Source of the DNA: Dictyostelium discoideum
Taxonomy: Eukaryota
Assembly: GCA_000004695.1 (NCBI GenBank)
Contig: CM000154.2
Span: 1,600,001-1,664,000, forward strand
Reading direction: 5' to 3'
Length of the DNA: 64,000 nt
Below, piece after piece: positions 4,662 to 60,154 of the stretch (position 1 is the stretch's first letter; each line of letters begins with the position of its first letter). The translations under genes and the position numbers were made by a program. A model generated the notes under the pieces. That model did no database searches. It worked only from the letters and a program-made list of their open reading frames with translations, and had not been told where the DNA came from.

Positions 4662-5141
4662 TTATAAACCTAAATCTGATAAACTTGGATGATCATCAGG
4701 TCTTTTACCGCATGGCCAATGAAATAATCTTTGTGATTCACTAATTGAGAGATCATTTATTGATGCATGTCTTTGAACCATTAGACCAAATTCATTGAAT
4801 TCCCAATTTTCATTTCCATATGATCTAAACCAATTACCATTTAAATCTTTCCATTCATATGCAAATCTGACGGCAATTCTATTACTACCAGCTTGAAATG
4901 TCCACAACTCTTTAATTAGTCTATATTCAACCTCTTTTTCCCATTTCTTTTTTAAAAATTCAACAACTTGTGTTCTACCATTAATAAATTCATTCCTATT
5001 TCTCCATTTTGTATCCAAACTGTATGCAAGTGAAACAGTTTCTGCATTCCTTGAATTCCATGCATCTTCTGCCATTCTAACTTTTTTAATTGCATCTTCA
5101 ATATTATTAAATGGTGGTACTGGTAATTTTATTTCTTGCAT
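4662..5141 (-). CDS. DUF1348 (PF07080)-type small conserved protein, single exon
   Basis: [110 protein letters not shown] matches the bacterial/fungal DUF1348 family end-to-end. True ATG at 5141; the track start at 5147 is a TTG. Confidence 0.8.
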
Positions 5142-5484
5142 TTTCAAATTATTATTATTATTATTTTTATTATTATTTTTCTTTAAACTTTTCTTATTTT
5201 TTTATTTTATTATATTTTTCTCAACTAAAATACCTATATATATATGTTTTATTTTAATTTTAAAATTTTATTTTTTTTTTTAAAAATTAAATTGGATTCT
5301 GTTCTATTGATTCTATTAATCTTTGAATTTTTTGGATTAAAAAGAAAATTCTTTTTGTTGTCAATGAAAATAAAATTAAAAAAAAAAATCTTTTTTTATT
5401 TTTTTTTATTTTTTTTTAATTTTTTTTTTTAATTTCGACAAAAAAGTGTGTGTTGATTTTTTTTTTTTTTAATGTGTGAGGAAG

Positions 5485-7192
5485 ATGATATCATATGAAT
5501 ATTGTGATAGTAGTGATAGCTTCTATTTTAATGATATTCAAGATTTTGATTTTAACCCATGGATAGAAGTAAAAAGTGTTTCTGAAAAAGGTAGATGTGT
5601 ATTTTCAAAGAAATTCATACCAAAGGGTACAATGGTATTTAGGGATATCCCATATGCCGCAATCGTTGATAATCAATTCAAAAGAAATATTTGTACAACT
5701 TGTTTTAAAATTTTATTAGAATCAAATAGACATAATTTTCAAACATGTCCTTCTTGTTTGTGAGTTTATTTTTTTTTTTTTTCTTTTTGTTTAATTTTTT
5801 ACCCCCTCCACCATTTAAAATTTTCCCACTAATCTATTTTTTCTTTTTTTTTTTTTTTAAATTTTTAGTCAAGTTAATTATTGTTCAAATTATTGTAAAC
5901 AGTATAGTAAAATTGAAACTAAACATACAGAATTAGAATGTAAATGGATTCAAGATTTCACAGTTTCATTTAAACATCAAATGGCAGAAGATGATAGAAA
6001 TATTGTATTATTAGTATTAAAAATTTTAGCTAGAAGAATTCATGAAAAACAATCTACAATATTTCATAATAAACCTTTAACAACCAATACTTTTGAAACT
6101 TGTACAAGTAATAATAATAATATAGACTTATTACCAATGATACCAAATGATATACCAGATTTAATTGATCATCTAGATGATTATTTCATTAATTCTAAAA
6201 ATAATAATGAATTTGAAAATGAAGAAGAAGAAGAAGAAGAACAAGAACAAAAAGGAGAAGGAGAACAAGAAGAAAATGAAAATAATGAAAATAATGAAAA
6301 AGTTAAAAAAAAAGTAATAATAATAGATGATAATGAAAAAGAAAAAGAAGAAATAAAGAAATTTAATAAAATTTGGAAAAATGATTTTAAAAGATTAATT
6401 AATATTGCCAAAGTTATTCAAATAATTATTGATGATTCAATAGATAGTTTGGAAAATATAAAATGTGATTATGGATTTGTTGATAATCAAGGTGATACTG
6501 AAATGGTTGATAATTCAATTGATCCAAAAGGATTAGATAAATTGGTTGATAATTTATCAAGTTCAGATTTAAATATCTTAAGATTATTATGTAAAATTAG
6601 AGCAAATTATTTTGGTTTATGGAATTCTGCTTATAAACCAATACCATTAAATTCAATTGATGATGATGATGATGATAATAATAATAATAAAGAGAAACCA
6701 AATAATGATTATTTATGGTGTGGATCTGGTGTATATTTAAAATTGTCATTATTTAATCATAGTTGTTTTCCAAATTGTACAACTTTAATTGAATATAATA
6801 TAAATAAAAAGAATAGTAATAATAATAATGGTAATAATGGTAATAATAATAGTTATGGTGATACTAATCAATTAACAATTTCAATTATAACATTACGTGA
6901 TATTGAAGAGAATCAAGAGTTATTAATTACTTATATACCTTTGAATCAAAAAATTAATGATAGAGTAAAGAGTTTAAAATCAAATTGGCTCTTTCAATGT
7001 GATTGTAAACGTTGTCATTTCGAAAAGATAAATGAAAATCAAACTGAAAAAATTTATAAAGATTCTTGTTGTACAAATCAAAAGTGTTCTGGTGGTTTAT
7101 TGATACCATTGGAACAAAATTCAACTCAAGGTATATGTAGAGTTTGTAAAAACACTTATACATTACCAACTGTATTCTATCCACTAAAATAA
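5485..7192 (+). CDS. SET- and MYND-domain protein (SMYD-like lysine methyltransferase). join(5485..5759,5869..7192)
   Basis: MYND zinc finger spans the intron: CTTCFKIL..QTCPSC-L|F-QVNYCSNYCKQY..H..ECKW. SET core NHSCFPNCTT and post-SET CDCKRCHFEK. Acidic/poly-N insert. Intron GTGAGT..TTTAG (5760-5868). The track start at 5476 is a GTG; the first in-frame ATG is at 5485. Confidence 0.8.
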
Positions 7193-22370: not shown

Positions 22371-22436
22371 TTGATATCTTTTTTTTTTTTTTTTTTGATA
22401 TCTTTTTTTTTTTTTTTTTGATATCTTTTTTTTTAC
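22371..22436. promoter_or_regulatory. Three direct copies of TTGATATC embedded in T-runs, in the divergent pgmA / NAT-1 intergenic region
   Basis: ...ttgatatct(n)ttgatatct(n)ttgatatct(n)acgaacc. Spacing ~25-32 bp, ~130 bp upstream of the NAT-1 ATG. Putative cis-element, function unknown. Confidence 0.3.
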
Positions 22437-22563
22437 GAACCAGTAAAAAAAAAAAAAAAAGAACGATGAGTCAATTGTTTTGTTTTTTGTTTAGAAAAAA
22501 TATTTTTTAATTATTTTTAATTTTAATTTTATTTTACTACCTTATATGTGTATTAAAATAATA

Positions 22564-23654
22564 ATGAATCCATTTACAGATTATCAAGTACAATTTTTTG
22601 AAAGAATAAAATTGAAACCAAGAATAATTGAATCATTAGATGATATTTCAGAAGTTTTAGTAGCTTGTTCAAAAGTATTTACATTTGAAAATTTAGATAT
22701 CATAAGTAATACTCAAGAAGCATTAACAAGAAAAGTTTTAATAAAACAAGTTTTAATTAATAAACAAGGTGGATTATGTTATAAAGCAAATACTTTATTA
22801 TATTATTTCCTTTTAGATTTCGGTTTAAATGTTCACCAAACTAGAGCAACTTGTGAAAATCAAGGTATTTTTCTTTTTTTTTTTTTATTTCATTTTATTT
22901 TATTTTATTTTATTTTATTTTATTTTATTTTATTTTTAGTTTTAGTTTTGTTAATAAATATTTTTTTTTTTTTAAAGAGAGTCATAGTCGTTGGAATATT
23001 GGCCATGGTCATATGATTAATATATTGAATTTTGAAAATAAATTATATGTAATGGATGTTGCATTTGGATGTAATTTATCATTAAGGCCAGTACCAATTA
23101 CAGATGATGGTAGTGAAGTTATTGAATCTTGTATTGGATTATATAGAGTTATTAAAAGAGAAAATATAGTTGCTGGAGTATATCATTATACACATATTTT
23201 AGAACATAGAAAACCAGATACTTATTTAATTGAATCTGCAAAGAATTGGGTAATTGGTTATGCATTTGATCCTTTATTAATTTGTAAAAATGATGGTGAT
23301 GATGATGATGATGATAATAATAATAATAATAATACTCATCAAACTCAAATTCAACAATTAGTAATAGATGATCCAAATAAAGATTTTTGTGTAAAGCCAT
23401 TAGCAACTAAATTAATAAATAATACAGATAATAATAATAATAATAATTCAATAGCGACATTAACCTTAAATTCATTCACACTTACAAATTGTAAAACTGG
23501 CGAAAAAATTAAAACAAATTTTGATAATGATAATTTATTTGAACAATTTAATCAACATTTAATTTCAATTTTTAATTTACCACCTTTAAAAATTATACCT
23601 CAAATATTTTTAAATCAAACATCAAATTTTCCTATAAATAATTTAAATAGTTAA
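22564..23654 (+). CDS. Arylamine N-acetyltransferase (NAT) family paralogue 1. join(22564..22864,22978..23654)
   Basis: NAT N-terminal FENLDI, catalytic Cys in QGGLCYKAN, His in GHGHMINIL, Asp in YVMDVAFG. Intron right after ..CENQG, same position in all three paralogues, containing an (ATTTT)n repeat. Start chosen at the second ATG (MNPFTDYQVQFF) by homology to the paralogues. Confidence 0.8.
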
Positions 23655-23804
23655 ATAATAAGATTTAAAAAAAAAAAAAAAAATTTTTAAAAAAAATAAA
23701 TTAATTAATAATTTTTATTTCTTTCGATATATCTTATTTAATAAAAACAAAAAACTGCGAAAAAAATAAAAAAAATAAAAAGAATTAATTGTTCTAAAAA
23801 TGAA

Positions 23805-23906
23805 AANNNNNNNNNNNNNNNNNNNNNNNNNNNNNNNNNNNNNNNNNNNNNNNNNNNNNNNNNNNNNNNNNNNNNNNNNNNNNNNNNNNNNNNNNNNNNN
23901 NNNNNN
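23805..23906. other. Assembly gap (102 N)
   Basis: Run of n between NAT paralogues 1 and 2. Confidence 1.
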
Positions 23907-24316
23907 TAACTTTTTTTATTACTTTTTGGGTCACTATCTTTTTTTGGTCAAAAAGCAAGATTTTTTTTATGTTACAATCTTTTTTTGGTAATAACTTTTT
24001 TTATGTAAAATAAAAAATAAAAAAAAAAAATACCCCAAAAAAGGGTCGGAATAGAAGGAGTTTAAAAACATTGCTGACATCATTGATTGACGGTTAAAAA
24101 ATAAAATTAAAAAAAAAAAAAAAAATTTAATGTAAAATTAACAAAAATATGATTCCGAACTTTTTTGGGTAATTCCGAGCTTTGGTATAAGATTTTTTCG
24201 AATTCTTATTATTATTTTTTTTTTATTTAACTTTTTTTTTTTTTTTTTTTTTTTCATATTTTATTTTAGTCTAATAAAAGTTTAAAAACAAATATATATA
24301 TATAAACAAATAAAAA

Positions 24317-25307
24317 ATGGAACCAAATCCAATATTTAGCGAATTTCAATTAGAATTTTTTAAAAGAATTAAAATGCAACCAAAATCAATAGAAACATTA
24401 AATGATGTTTCAGAAGTGATGAGTGGTTGTGCACAAATTTTTTCATTTGAAAATTTAGATGTAGTTGCAAATACAACTGAACCTTTAAATAGAGAAGTGA
24501 TAATTCAACAACTTGTAAATAATAAACAAGGTGGATTATGTTATAAAATTAATTCTGTATTTTATTATTTTATTAAAAGTTTTGGTTTTAATATTTATCA
24601 AGTTAGATGTTGTGTTGAAAATCAAGGTATGTTTTTTTGGTTAAAAAAAAAAAGTTGAAAAAAAAAAAAAAAATTTTATTAACAAATTTTTAAAAAAATA
24701 AAAAATAAAAAATAAAGAAACACATGATTGTTGGCAAATTAATGGTGCACATATTATAAATATAATTGAATATGAAAATAAAAAATATTTAGCAGACGTT
24801 GCATTTGGATGTAATTTATCATATGAACCAATTCCATTTTCAGAAGAGATTATTGAATCATGTACAGGTTTATATCGTATTCGTAAAGTTGATAATATTA
24901 TTAGGGATATTAAATATACATATCTTTTAGAATTTAAAAAACCAGATTCATTTTCACCAGAATCTGCTCGTTTATGGACCAATGGTTATGCATTTGATCC
25001 ATTGGTAAAAGCAATTGATATTGATGAAAATGATAAAATTGATAGTCATGCAACTCAAATTCAACAATTAATTATTGATGATCCAACAAAAGAATTTAGT
25101 GTTAAACCTTTAGCTACAAAAGTTGTAAACAATGAATCAATAGCAACTTTAACCTCAAATTCATTCACTTTAACAAATTGTAAAACTGGTGAAAAAACAA
25201 AAGTTACCTTTGATATCAATAATGAAATCAAACAATTAGAACAATTTAATCAACATTTAATTTCAATTTTTAATTTACCACCTTTAAAATTTTTACCAAA
25301 AATTTAA
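24317..25307 (+). CDS. Arylamine N-acetyltransferase family paralogue 2, more diverged. join(24317..24626,24718..25307)
   Basis: MEPNPIFSEFQLEFF..FENLDV..QGGLCYKIN..CVENQG|ETHDCWQINGAHIINIIEYENKKYLADVAFG... C-terminus SIATLTSNSFTLTNCKTGEKTK..FNQHLISIFNLPPLK shared with the paralogues. Same intron position. Confidence 0.75.
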
Positions 25308-25651
25308 AAATAATATGAAAATAAAAAAATAAAAAAAAAATAAAAAAAAAATAAAAAAAATAAAAAAAAAAAAACAATTGATTCGTGTCTGAAAGTGTGG
25401 ATTTAAAAAAGAATCTAAATTTTAATTCAGGAATCTTCTTTTTTTAGAAAATGTTTGTGCAATAATTTATTTTTTTTTTTATTTTTTTAATTTTTTTTTT
25501 TTTATTTTTAATTTTAAAAGAAAAAAAAAAAAAAAAAAACAAAAAAAAATAAAAAAAATAAAAAAACCATATTTTTTTTCAACCTTTTACAACAGATATA
25601 TCTAAAAAAAAAAAAAAAATAAAAAAAAATAAAAAAAATAAAAAAAAAAAA

Positions 25652-25989
25652 ATGGAAGCAATTTCAATATTTTCAGATTATCAATTACAATTTTTTAAAA
25701 GAATTGGAATGAAACCAAAACCAATTGAAACATTAGATGATGTTTCAGATGTAATGAAAGCATGCTCAAATGTATTTTCTTTTGAGAATTTAGATATTGT
25801 ATCTAATTCATGTGAACCTTTAAATAAGGATGTATTAATAAAACAAGTAATATGTAATAATCAAGGTGGACTATGTTATAAAATCAACACTTTATTATAT
25901 CATTTTCTTTTAGAATTTGGTTTCAAAATTCATATAATTAGAGGTAGTGTTGAAAATCAAGGTATGTGAATAAAAATTAATTTTTAAAA

Positions 25990-26030
<41 letters not shown>

Positions 26031-26671
26031 TAATAATTGTTTACATTAATAATTTTATAGAAACTCATTCAGATTGGAATATTCCAACTGGTCATATGAT
26101 TAATATAATTAATTTTGAAAATAGGTTATATGTTGTTGATGTTGCATTTGGATGTAATCTTTCATTGAGACCAATTCCAATTACAGATGATGGTAGTGAA
26201 GTAGTTGAATCCTGCACAGGTTTATATCGTGTTCGTAAAGTTGAAAATTGTGTTTCTGGAAAATATAATTATACACATATTCTAGAACATAGGAAATTGG
26301 ATAGTTTTTTAATTGAATCTGGAAAGACCTGGGTGACAGGTTATGCATTTGATCCATTATTAATTGTTGATAATAATAATAATAATGAAAAAACAACCCA
26401 CCAAACACTTGTACAACAATTAGTAATTGATGATCCAACTAAAGAATTTAGTACTAAACCTTTGGCTACTAAAATTGTAAATGATGGTTCATCATTCTCT
26501 ATTGCAACTTTAACTGCAAATTCATTCACACTTACAGATTGTAAAACTGGTCAAAAAACTAAAACCAATTTTGATAATGATAAATCATCATTTGAACAAT
26601 TTAATCAACATTTAATTTCAATTTTTAATTTACCACCTTTAAAAACAATTCCGCCAATATTTTTAAATTAA
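25652..26671 (+). CDS. Arylamine N-acetyltransferase family paralogue 3. join(25652..25961,26061..26671)
   Basis: MEAISIFSDYQLQFF..FENLDI..QGGLCYKIN..VENQG|ETHSDWNIPTGHMINIINFENRLYVVDVAFG..; C-terminus nearly identical to paralogue 1. Cys-His-Asp triad intact. Confidence 0.8.
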
Positions 26672-27569: not shown

Positions 27570-27737
27570 AAGAGAGTGTGCAGGGGTAAAATAATTTTAA
27601 ATATTTTGTTTTTAGTTAATTATTATTATTTTTTTTCTTTTATTTGTTTATTTTTAATTTTATTTTATTTTTTGTTTTTTTGTTTTTAAAATATTTTTTT
27701 TTTATTTATTTTTTTTTAAAAATTTTATATTTTTTTN

Positions 27738-27836
27738 NNNNNNNNNNNNNNNNNNNNNNNNNNNNNNNNNNNNNNNNNNNNNNNNNNNNNNNNNNNNNNN
27801 NNNNNNNNNNNNNNNNNNNNNNNNNNNNNNNNNNNN
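27738..27836. other. Assembly gap (99 N), followed by low-quality sequence to ~27990
   Basis: Run of n, then ttaaggggatttaaggggttttaagggg...cccccccggggggtaaggttgg, which is atypical for this genome. Confidence 1.
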
Positions 27837-35028: not shown

Positions 35029-36351
35029 TTAATTAAATAAATCATTTGAATAATGATCCATTACAAAGGTAGAGAGTTGATTAAAAAAGTAAATGAATGC
35101 AAATTCTGGAATATGAGGACTCATTAATATATTAATTTTAATCCATCTATCAATACCACCTCTTTTATAAATTTTAAAACTATAATCGAATGGGAAATTA
35201 CCTAAATCAATACCAGACTCCAACAAACTATTCCAATAAATTTTAAATAATTTTTCTTCATTTTCTCTTCTAAATTTAATTTCACAATTACTAATTATAA
35301 ATTGAGCCATATCAGAGAAAGGACAACCAAAACCAATTTCACTAAAATCTAAAAGATATAATTTATCATTTTTATTGTGTTGTTGTTGCTCAACGCCATC
35401 TAAAACCAATGGCACCATAACATTACCAGCATGAAAATCGCCATGAATTAAAGAGAATGCATTCTTTTCATTACTTGTATCAATTCTTGTTTTGAATTGT
35501 TCCCATTTTAAATAATGATTAAAATAAATTTCAATAACTTTCAAAACTTGATCAACATTAATTAATGGTGATGTTTCTTTATATTGTTCTTGTATTTTCT
35601 TTATAATTGGTAAAGTCTTTTCTTCCCATGTTGATTTCAAAACTTGATAATTCTTTTTGACCCATTCTTCTTTACCACAATCATTACCTTGATAAATATC
35701 GAAATCTTTTAACCAAGAATTTGATTGATTTGATAAAAGTTTTTTACAATCTCCCCAATTTTCTATATGAATTTTCGAAGTCTCTAAAAAACATTTCTTT
35801 ACAATTTCAAATGGATCATATAAATCTAGATTCAAACCTTGGACTTTACCCCAACATTGATTACCCATCACTTTACAAGCCGATACATATTCTGATAAAT
35901 CTTGCATTATAATTGAATATTCACCAGTTTCATTATTTTTATTTGCATAATAAATTATTGGTAAAAAATCAAATTTCATACCACTTTCTTTATTTGATTT
36001 CATTTGTTTTTGATAAAATTCAGCTTCCCTATATGTTTTACTTTCAAGTGATGATACAATACATGAAGCACTATCGTTTTTAATTGATTTAATAACAATA
36101 GAATTTGGTAATGAAATTGATGATAAACTATCATCATCATCATCATTGTTATCAACATTCTTATTATCCCATTTTAAATAAACTCTTGATATTTCACCCA
36201 TTAAACCACCTTCTAACAATTTTTCTTGAATTTTAAATTCAATCAATTTGATTTTCTCTAAATCTTGTTTTGGTAATTCTAGTTGATCTTTAATAATTGA
36301 TTCAATAAATTCAATTGTTAAATCATTTCTAAAAATAATTGATTTTACCAT
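35029..36351 (-). CDS. Phosphotransferase-enzyme-family protein (APH / choline-ethanolamine-kinase-like, CHK/EcKinase-type), single exon
   Basis: Brenner motif LIHGDFHAGNVM followed by LLDFSEIGFGCPFSDMA (the DxxxG-like Mg-binding region). 440 aa, no intron. ATG at 36351. Confidence 0.75.
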   Translation of the reverse strand: MVKSIIFRNDLTIEFIESIIKDQLELPKQDLEKIKLIEFKIQEKLLEGGLMGEISRVYLKWDNKNVDNNDDDDDSLSSISLPNSIVIKSIKNDSASCIVSSLESKTYREAEFYQKQMKSNKESGMKFDFLPIIYYANKNNETGEYSIIMQDLSEYVSACKVMGNQCWGKVQGLNLDLYDPFEIVKKCFLETSKIHIENWGDCKKLLSNQSNSWLKDFDIYQGNDCGKEEWVKKNYQVLKSTWEEKTLPIIKKIQEQYKETSPLINVDQVLKVIEIYFNHYLKWEQFKTRIDTSNEKNAFSLIHGDFHAGNVMVPLVLDGVEQQQHNKNDKLYLLDFSEIGFGCPFSDMAQFIISNCEIKFRRENEEKLFKIYWNSLLESGIDLGNFPFDYSFKIYKRGGIDRWIKINILMSPHIPEFAFIYFFNQLSTFVMDHYSNDLFN

Positions 36352-47548: not shown

Positions 47549-47648
47549 NNNNNNNNNNNNNNNNNNNNNNNNNNNNNNNNNNNNNNNNNNNNNNNNNNNN
47601 NNNNNNNNNNNNNNNNNNNNNNNNNNNNNNNNNNNNNNNNNNNNNNNN
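47549..47648. other. Assembly gap (100 N)
   Basis: Run of n, flanked by near-identical ~80 bp direct repeats. Confidence 1.
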
Positions 47649-58896: not shown

Positions 58897-60154
58897 TTAT
58901 AATTTTGAATTTAATAATTTATCTTTAATTTCTTTTGAAACTCTAAAACCTGATTCTAAGGCACCTTCCATATAACCAATCCAAACTGAAGCAGTTTCTG
59001 TACCAGCCCAATGAATTCTACCAACTGGAGCACGTAAATGTTCACCACATTGGTAGAGAGTACCTGGACTAGTGTAACCTAAATAACAACCACGTGAATA
59101 TTCTTCTTCTTTCCAACTTTTCTCTAAAAAGATTCTTGGAGATAATGCTTTTGGACCCCACCAACGAGCATAACAGTCTAAGACGGCTCTCTTTCTTTCT
59201 TCTGGTGATTTTTCAGCCCAATCTTTAGCGGCTGAAGCAGCAATGAAACCAACGATAGCTGTTTTCTTATCGTCATGTGAAGAGTCATCATAGCAGATAA
59301 AGATTGGACCTTTATCAGAGATGGCTTCAGCTGAATAACCTTCTTTTCTCCAGAATGGTTCATCATAGATGGTGATGGTTTTAATGACGGAACCCATTGG
59401 CATTCTTTGAGTGAGTTCATCACGTCTTGGTGGCATAGATGGTGAATAATGAATACGGCCAGCCAATGTTGGTGGAATTGCAACAACAATGTATTTTGAA
59501 CGATAAGTTGAACCGTTATCAGTTTTAATGGTACATTGATTGGCATCTTGAATAATGGAACGCACTGGTGCATTTAAAGTGTAATGCTTCTCACCGATTT
59601 TCTTTGCTAAACCTTCAGAGATTTGTTGTGAACCACCAATTAAACGATCTTGTTGTGCTCCACCATGAATATCTGCTAATAAACCATAGTTACCAGCTGT
59701 ACGAATGAAATGTAAGAAAAATAAGAAACTAACTTCAGTTGGTTCTGCGGCAACGCAAACACGACAAAACCAATCGATGATGGATCTTGCGTCATTACCT
59801 TTAACATTCTTCTCCACCCATTGTGCTACTGTTAACTGATCATATTCCTTTGATTTACTATGTGCATATGGTTTATCTGGATTCAATTCGGCTGATAATT
59901 CATCGATCTTGCTAATTGACTCGAATAATCCTTCTAAATTATAACTCTTATTTAAATTACTAATATTACCTTGATAATAAACTTTCTTACCATTAATCTC
60001 TAATACATGTTTACCTTCATCATATTGTGGGAATGATTTAACTCCAAGTTCGTCACATAATTCTTTTAAATATTTATGTGTACCTCCCATCCATTGTCCG
60101 CCTAAATCAAACCAATAATCTTCAACTTTAATTGACTCTGTTCTACCACCAAAT

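Follow-up and report, generated by a model that had tools for sequence, protein, structure and literature searches.

A tandem array of three annotated arylamine N-acetyltransferase family genes in Dictyostelium discoideum and its relation to NATs of Bacillales

Introduction

Arylamine N-acetyltransferases (NATs) display four curated family motifs, namely VPFENL, RGGYC, THRL and VDV, and surveys of NAT nomenclature list the genes of Dictyostelium discoideum as (DICDI)NAT1 onward (PMC11213898). The solved structures closest to the D. discoideum NAT1, NAT2 and NAT3 products are from Bacillus. These are B. cereus (BACCR)NAT3 (entry 4DMO of the Protein Data Bank, PDB), which is a Cys-His-Glu variant of the catalytic triad (entry title; PMC11213898), and the NAT of B. 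anthracis (3LNB), which has the canonical Asp, as do the three Dictyostelium products. Human NAT1 and NAT2 (2PQT, 2PFR) are more distant members of the family. Described here is the locus that encodes NAT1, NAT2 and NAT3 in D. discoideum AX4. It lies in a 64-kb stretch of genomic DNA, termed the window (assembly GCA_000004695.1, contig CM000154.2, positions 1,600,001 to 1,664,000), where nat1, nat2 and nat3 form a head-to-tail array on the + strand and all three genes are intact.

The array is already known, both from the reference annotation and from the curated NAT nomenclature. The analysis of gene structure, family membership, phylogeny and flanking sequences presented below supports, with a probability of about 90%, its reading as an annotated tandem array of three intact paralogous genes of the PF00797 family.

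Gene structure and family assignment

The genes occupy positions 22564–23654 (nat1), 24317–25307 (nat2) and 25652–26671 (nat3) and are separated by spacers of 662 bp and 344 bp, respectively. The models were spliced from the ATG-to-stop spans put forward in an earlier reading of the DNA sequence (the original prediction), whose outer coordinates prove correct, with clean splicing. The predicted chain lengths are 325 amino acids (aa) for NAT1, 299 for NAT2 and 306 for NAT3, and not about 290 as had been estimated. An exact-sequence look-up shows that the products are identical, residue for residue, to XP_636704.1/Q54IU9 (NAT1), XP_636690.1/Q54IU8 (NAT2) and XP_636691.1/Q54IU7 (NAT3). Because of this identity to database proteins, the array is real and its coordinates are exact. 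The database names, “Probable arylamine N-acetyltransferase 1”, “2” and “3”, are homology-based predictions.

Each copy has one GT..AG intron, which is located at the identical alignment column and is in phase 1 in NAT1–3. Exon 1 of every copy closes with GAA AAT CAA G followed by GTAT of the intron, and the split codon (G/AG or G/AA) encodes Glu. The original prediction had a single shared intron after ENQG; its position is indeed common to all copies, however the split codon gives ENQE. The region has a guanine plus cytosine (GC) content of 14%–21% in 1-kb windows, with the coding blocks set apart by homopolymer-rich spacers. The coding sequences of NAT1–3 have 23%–26% GC and are thus fully ameliorated to the composition of the host.

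All three proteins match the PF00797 (Acetyltransf_2) domain, with E-values of 1.6e-21 (NAT1), 3.4e-27 (NAT2) and 1.7e-26 (NAT3). The corresponding scores are 77.6, 96.2 and 94.0 bits, and the gathering score is 22.8 bits. The Pfam match of NAT1 is broken at residue 193 by poly-Asp/poly-Asn insertions. These are encoded in exon 2 of nat1 (D6N6 and N-rich tracts, 23296–23330 and 23420–23450) and are absent from nat2 and nat3. The chain length of NAT1 differs between strain assemblies of D. discoideum, i.e. 325, 327 and 316 aa.

The sequence QGGLCYK is found in all three copies, and its Cys (C72, C75 and C75 in NAT1, NAT2 and NAT3) falls on the catalytic Cys when aligned to 4DMO, 3LNB and human NAT1, and is invariant across the homologue alignments examined. 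The His motif is GHMINI in NAT1, AHIINI in NAT2 and GHMINI in NAT3; this His is invariant in all alignments and aligns with His107 of human NAT1. The Asp within MDVAFG (NAT1), ADVAFG (NAT2) and VDVAFG (NAT3) is matched by Asp122 in human NAT1, by Asp also in 3LNB and by the catalytic Glu in 4DMO. The counterpart of VPFENL is FTFENL in NAT1 and FSFENL in NAT2 and NAT3, where the E and N are invariant in the homologue alignment. With the exception of the Arg of RGGYC, all four curated motifs are therefore recognisable in NAT1–3. Both the PF00797 search and the triad alignment had been proposed as checks in the original prediction; the matches are significant for all three proteins, and Cys, His and Asp fall on the triad positions of known NATs. 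The motifs that it named are also present (QGGLCYK, the His, and the Asp within YVMDVAFG, YLADVAFG and YVVDVAFG), but the copy 2 His motif was misread as GHIINI.

An AlphaFold2 model of NAT3, computed from a 39-sequence alignment, has a mean predicted local distance difference test score (pLDDT) of 89.8 and a predicted template modelling score (pTM) of 0.89. When the model was searched against the PDB with Foldseek, the 40 matches at E ≤ 0.001 were without exception NAT-family structures, and 4DMO and 3LNB were on top with template modelling (TM) scores of 0.92–0.93 (target-normalised) and a root mean square deviation of 2.4 Å. The next matches are transglutaminase-like, at an E-value of about 1e-2. 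The model thus predicts the three-domain NAT fold, i.e. a helical bundle, a beta-barrel and an alpha/beta lid, for NAT3. NAT1 and NAT2 probably have the same fold, because they are 62%–72% identical to the modelled NAT3. Pfam, the alignment with solved NATs, the structural model and the identity with annotated proteins all agree with the original proposal of a NAT-fold tandem array that arose by local duplication.

Divergence, age and conservation of the three copies

The closest pair is NAT1 and NAT3, whose aa identity is 71.5% over the whole protein and 75.7% for exon 2. NAT2 diverges most from the others (58.7% identity with NAT1 and 61.9% with NAT3). The C-terminal halves of copies 1 and 3 had been described as near-identical, which the per-exon and sliding-window identities do not support: most 90-nt windows of nat1 and nat3 have a nucleotide (nt) identity of 71%–87%, and a value of 91% is attained only over the final ~130 nt. 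Orthologues of D. discoideum and D. firmibasis are closer to each other than are the paralogues in every 90-nt window except at the 3′ end. In the last ~130 nt, the 91% identity of nat1 and nat3 compares with 86%–88% for nat1 and its D. firmibasis orthologue. Within this terminal region, a 51–56-nt stretch that encodes EQFNQHLISIFNLPPLK is nucleotide-identical in the three paralogues (regions 23500–23620, 25210–25290 and 26560–26650). The stretch could represent a short gene-conversion tract, or could be the result of strong constraint together with codon bias. Concerted evolution of the whole gene was considered and is rejected, in view of the closer similarity of the orthologues outside the last ~130 nt and the orthogroup bootstraps of 99%–100% (see below).

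The differences between the paralogues are concentrated at roughly residues 165–240, which include the low-complexity inserts. At the positions that correspond to the specificity residues F125, R127 and Y129 of human NAT1, all three copies carry F, C and L, and there is no sign of diversification at these sites. A diversification of substrates among NAT1–3, which the original prediction had raised in connection with soil toxins, is possible but unsupported.

The array is conserved in D. firmibasis. The gene order there is a large upstream gene, phosphoglucomutase (on the opposite strand), NAT1, NAT2, NAT3 and a gene of ~618 aa, which is the same order as in D. discoideum, where ankyrin and PH domains are found in the counterpart of the ~618-aa gene. 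The phase-1 intron after ENQ is present in each of the three D. firmibasis orthologues. The genes are also found under consecutive locus tags in D. dimigraforme, in D. citrinum and in several strain assemblies of D. discoideum.

In a neighbour-joining tree of 71 sequences the three genes form a clade with 99% bootstrap, each of the three orthogroups has 99%–100%, and NAT1 and NAT3 are sisters with 71%. For every copy, a 1:1 orthologue is present in two or more other species, the number being three for NAT2 and NAT3. These 1:1:1 orthogroups, with bootstraps of 99–100, place both tandem duplications before D. discoideum, D. citrinum, D. dimigraforme and D. firmibasis separated. The ratios of nonsynonymous to synonymous substitutions (dN/dS, Nei-Gojobori method) between D. 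discoideum and D. firmibasis are 0.31 for NAT1, 0.25 for NAT2 and 0.27 for NAT3; therefore all three copies are under purifying selection.

These comparisons show that a lone ancestral gene, with the phase-1 intron already present, was duplicated in tandem twice. The earlier event would have separated NAT2 from the ancestor of NAT1 and NAT3, and the later event NAT1 from NAT3. Both took place before the diversification of the D. discoideum species complex, after which all copies have been kept by purifying selection. Local duplication, as originally proposed, is borne out, however the accompanying claim of ongoing divergence overstated its recency.

The spacer between NAT1 and NAT2

The nat1–nat2 spacer contains an assembly gap of 100 N (Table 1). 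The original prediction noted both this gap and a cluster of odd repeats on the 5′ side of copy 2. Both are present, and the repeats are those of an inverted repeat at the gap described below; the N run however begins at 23807 and not at 23805. A newer, independent assembly of D. discoideum, GCA_054883475.1, covers the locus in a 5.29-Mb contig. It has the genes in identical order and encodes the same three proteins, and its gap-free NAT1–NAT2 spacer is 646 bp, versus 662 bp in the window. Alignment of the two spacers shows near-identical flanks, and the 100 N are replaced by about 86 bp. The fill begins with an A-rich tract, after which the sequence immediately to the right of the gap occurs in exact reverse complement. 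Together they form a perfect palindrome whose arms are at positions 5541–5593 and 5600–5652 of the locus extracted from the newer assembly (L001), and which has a predicted DNA hairpin energy of −53 kcal/mol.

Because the gap coincides with one arm of a perfect palindrome, it is most likely a failure of cloning or sequencing at this site and not a hidden or collapsed gene copy. The possibility of a fourth copy within the gap is rejected, since the fill is only ~86 bp of A-rich and palindromic sequence and tblastn detects no other NAT copy or fragment in the 64-kb window. The gap in the reference sequence is thus accounted for by the palindrome and conceals no gene. The copy-number check suggested earlier gives exactly three copies both in GCA_054883475.1 and in D. 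firmibasis.

A second copy of the palindrome sequence is not found in the window, nor is a counterpart found in the NAT1–NAT2 spacer of D. firmibasis. On both counts, a conserved function of the palindrome is not supported. A foldback element, a regulatory site and a neutral sequence are candidates for its nature.

A different repeat is found upstream of nat1. It consists of GATATC plus a run of 17–18 T, in three tandem copies that start at 22373, 22397 and 22420 (span 22373–22440), ~130–190 bp upstream of the nat1 ATG, and may be a promoter-region repeat. The window contains two further assembly gaps of 100 N, at 27737–27836 and 47549–47648.

Table 1. Exons, introns and spacer features of the nat1–nat2–nat3 array (positions in the window).
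Feature	Positions	Strand	Description
NAT1 exon 1	22564..22864	+	aa 1–100 and first base of codon 101; FTFENL; Cys72 TGT 22777–22779
NAT1 intron	22865..22977	+	113 nt, GTATTT...TTAAAG, 6% GC, phase 1
NAT1 exon 2	22978..23654	+	His112 23010–23012; Asp127 23055–23057; poly-Asp/poly-Asn tracts; stop
Assembly gap, 100 N	23807..23906	.	about 86 bp in GCA_054883475.1: A-rich tract and left arm of palindrome
Inverted-repeat right arm	23916..23968	.	perfect 53-bp arms; 6-nt loop 23910–23915; left arm inside gap
NAT2 exon 1	24317..24626	+	FSFENL; Cys75 24539–24541
NAT2 intron	24627..24717	+	91 nt, GTATGT...ATAAAG, 9% GC, phase 1
NAT2 exon 2	24718..25307	+	His115 24750–24752; Asp130 24795–24797; stop
NAT3 exon 1	25652..25961	+	FSFENL; Cys75 25874–25876
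NAT3 intron	25962..26060	+	99 nt, GTATGT...TTATAG, 6% GC, phase 1; in-frame TGA directly 3′ of donor site
NAT3 exon 2	26061..26671	+	His115 26093–26095; Asp130 26138–26140; stop

Phylogenetic position of the dictyostelid NATs

The original prediction flagged the origin of these genes as a point to be checked, which proves apt. When phmmer was run exhaustively against 1.84 billion cluster representatives, the three proteins fell into a single 50%-identity cluster and the next matches were 31%–39% identical. All 20 of the named top matches are dictyostelid or Bacillales. The dictyostelid matches are from D. purpureum, Cavenderia fasciculata, Tieghemostelium lacteum, Heterostelium pallidum, Synstelium, Polysphondylium violaceum and D. 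dimigraforme, and include NAT6 of D. discoideum; those from Bacillales are from Metabacillus, the B. cereus group, Paenibacillus, B. testis, Cytobacillus, Terribacillus and Jeotgalibacillus. A profile search of wider reach yields thousands of bacterial NATs of ~250 aa. Bacillales predominate among the named sequences of its best 120 matches, Bacteroidota and Ignavibacteriota contribute a few, and these 120 contain no eukaryote other than dictyostelids. Against the three D. discoideum proteins, B. cereus NAT3 scores up to 155 bits and human NAT1 45 bits. Judged by these sequence comparisons, the closest relatives of the array outside Dictyostelia are the NATs of Bacillales, which are far nearer than the human NATs.

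By a narrow preference, we favour the view that the dictyostelid NATs were acquired by an early dictyostelid through horizontal transfer from a Bacillales-like soil bacterium, possibly its prey, and that the NAT1–3 lineage would then have gained a spliceosomal intron and undergone tandem triplication. The affinity with Bacillales, together with the intronless genes of D. purpureum and C. fasciculata (see below), fits an old bacterial transfer with a later intron gain. The deep nodes of the neighbour-joining tree have low support, which limits this reading: monophyly of the dictyostelid NATs has 22% bootstrap, and the grouping of NAT1–3 with D. purpureum has 33%. The tree represents the amoebozoans by dictyostelid NATs only. 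Glenn et al. (2010, FEBS Lett) have reportedly already noted that bacterial and protist NATs are mixed in their phylogeny.

Neighbouring genes

The array is flanked by a gene with a PI3/PI4-kinase domain, by phosphoglucomutase and by the ankyrin/PH gene. Farther off in the window are helicase, SET, acyltransferase, EcKL, CBS, lectin-like and amine-oxidase genes. Two of these belong to families of small-molecule metabolism, i.e. the EcKL (ecdysteroid-kinase-like) open reading frame at 35029–36351 and the flavin amine-oxidase open reading frame at 58897–60090, both on the − strand. As they are about 8 kb and 32 kb from the array, no clustering is implied.

No polyketide synthase (PKS) or nonribosomal peptide synthetase (NRPS) domains were found in the subset of window open reading frames of ≥120 aa that was scanned. 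A biosynthetic gene cluster context of the RifF/GdmF type is rejected at the array, where there are no adjoining PKS, NRPS or tailoring genes. Also considered was a mobile element linked to a tRNA gene close to the array; the window has zero tRNA genes.

Discussion

As members of their family, NAT1–3 most likely transfer acyl groups by a ping-pong mechanism. Acetyl-CoA or another acyl-CoA would acylate the catalytic Cys (C72, C75 and C75), activated by the His and Asp, and the acyl group would then move from the Cys thioester to an aromatic amine, a hydrazine or an N-hydroxyarylamine. Candidates for physiological substrates are bacterial or soil arylamines, hydrazines and folate catabolites.

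Some observations weigh against the reading of the locus as an array of three such paralogues. The conserved Arg of RGGYC is replaced by Gln in all three copies; the same position is also variable among the closest dictyostelid and Bacillales homologues. Literature searches, accession searches included, have found no biochemical or genetic data on the NAT1–3 proteins. Enzymes with a NAT fold also include amide synthases (RifF, GdmF) and N-malonyltransferases (Fusarium FDB2), and these are lower in the fold search. The placement of NAT1 and NAT3 as products of a later duplication rests on the 71% bootstrap given above.

That the copy number is an artefact of assembly, i.e. a collapsed or expanded repeat around the 23807–23906 gap, might be suggested by the run of 100 N that separates copies 1 and 2. 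Its probability is practically nil. The proteins differ by 28%–41%, and the copies therefore cannot be mis-assembled duplicates of one gene; moreover the same three genes, with a gap-free spacer of nearly equal length, are present in GCA_054883475.1, and consecutive locus tags are found in several other D. discoideum strain assemblies and in three other species. Decay of at least one copy has somewhat more in its favour, and copy 2 is the obvious candidate: NAT2 is the most divergent of the three (59%–62% identity to the other two), and NAT1 has the insertions that interrupt its Pfam match at residue 193. All copies, however, have an intact reading frame, canonical splice sites and a complete triad, and 1:1 orthologues of each are found in two or more further species (NAT2 and NAT3 have three). 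NAT2 itself has both the lowest dN/dS of the 0.25–0.31 range and the best Pfam score of the three, and the loss of function of any copy appears highly improbable.

The enzymes may instead act in endogenous or secondary metabolism and not in the detoxification of xenobiotic arylamines; they might serve as amide synthases, transfer acyl or malonyl groups to a metabolite of Dictyostelium, or acetylate a folate catabolite. This would be in line with the fold matches, which include GdmF (an amide synthase), an N-acyltransferase of Streptomyces and FDB2 of Fusarium (an N-malonyltransferase). Secondary metabolism has also been argued to be a major role of microbial NATs, and the Bacillus NAT3 isoforms, which are the closest solved relatives, have been tied to NRPS-type clusters (PMC11213898). 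However the genes on either side of the array are not PKS, NRPS or tailoring genes, and antiSMASH gives no cluster for protist NATs with the possible exception of (DICDI)NAT4 (PMC11213898), a gene that is outside the window. In addition, 4DMO, the solved structure nearest to NAT1–3, is reported to be active as an arylamine N-acetyltransferase (entry title; PMC11213898). An endogenous role is thus rather unlikely, and the array of intact genes for NAT-family acyl transfer is the preferred reading.

Beyond the confirmation of annotated genes the results have little significance, and the sole mildly novel reading is that of a Bacillales origin with intron gain, which makes the locus a tidy candidate case of transfer from a bacterium to an amoeba followed by the gain of an intron. 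The triplication, which is dated and selectively maintained, offers a clean system for tests of subfunctionalisation among NAT paralogues, in a host that is a genetically tractable soil predator of bacteria.

Comparison with known systems

Among solved relatives, which were found by a sequence search against the PDB, 4DMO is the best match for NAT1–3 (130–155 bits; E-values of 1.9e-44, 1.5e-42 and 7.9e-37) and 3LNB is second (118–136 bits). Salmonella, mycobacterial and human NATs score 28–45 bits in the same search. For 4DMO and NAT3, 244 residues align with about 39% identity. Both Bacillus enzymes have the same three-domain fold as that predicted for the Dictyostelium proteins, and the catalytic Cys and His are aligned. 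NAT1–3 are however 35–70 aa longer than 4DMO and 3LNB, with low-complexity Asn/Asp inserts and a conserved C-terminal tail, EQFNQHLISIFNLPPLK, and their genes contain an intron, unlike the Bacillus NAT genes. The human enzymes share the family, the aligned Cys-His-Asp triad and the overall fold with NAT1–3, but are far more distant (45 bits and 16%–18% identity in the structural alignment).

The other dictyostelid NATs compared, i.e. DICPUDRAFT_33247 of D. purpureum, XP_004356142.1 of C. fasciculata, the Tieghemostelium, Heterostelium and Polysphondylium homologues and D. discoideum NAT6, belong to the same subfamily as NAT1–3. They have 31%–39% identity with these and group with them beside Bacillales in the neighbour-joining tree. 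NAT6 (DDB_G0277549, outside the window) has 487 aa with two stretches that match NAT3, and is predicted at 538 aa or 192 aa in different strain assemblies; fusion, duplication or an erroneous gene model may account for this. Unlike nat1, nat2 and nat3, the D. purpureum gene (870 bp for 289 aa) and the C. fasciculata gene (867 bp for 288 aa) are intronless. Neither is syntenic with the array, and each is in an unrelated neighbourhood. C. fasciculata has its own tandem pair of intronless NAT genes, at 5001–5867 and 6155–6994 of the locus compared (L004). This pair is independent of the D. discoideum array, and tandem duplication of NAT genes therefore recurs in dictyostelids.

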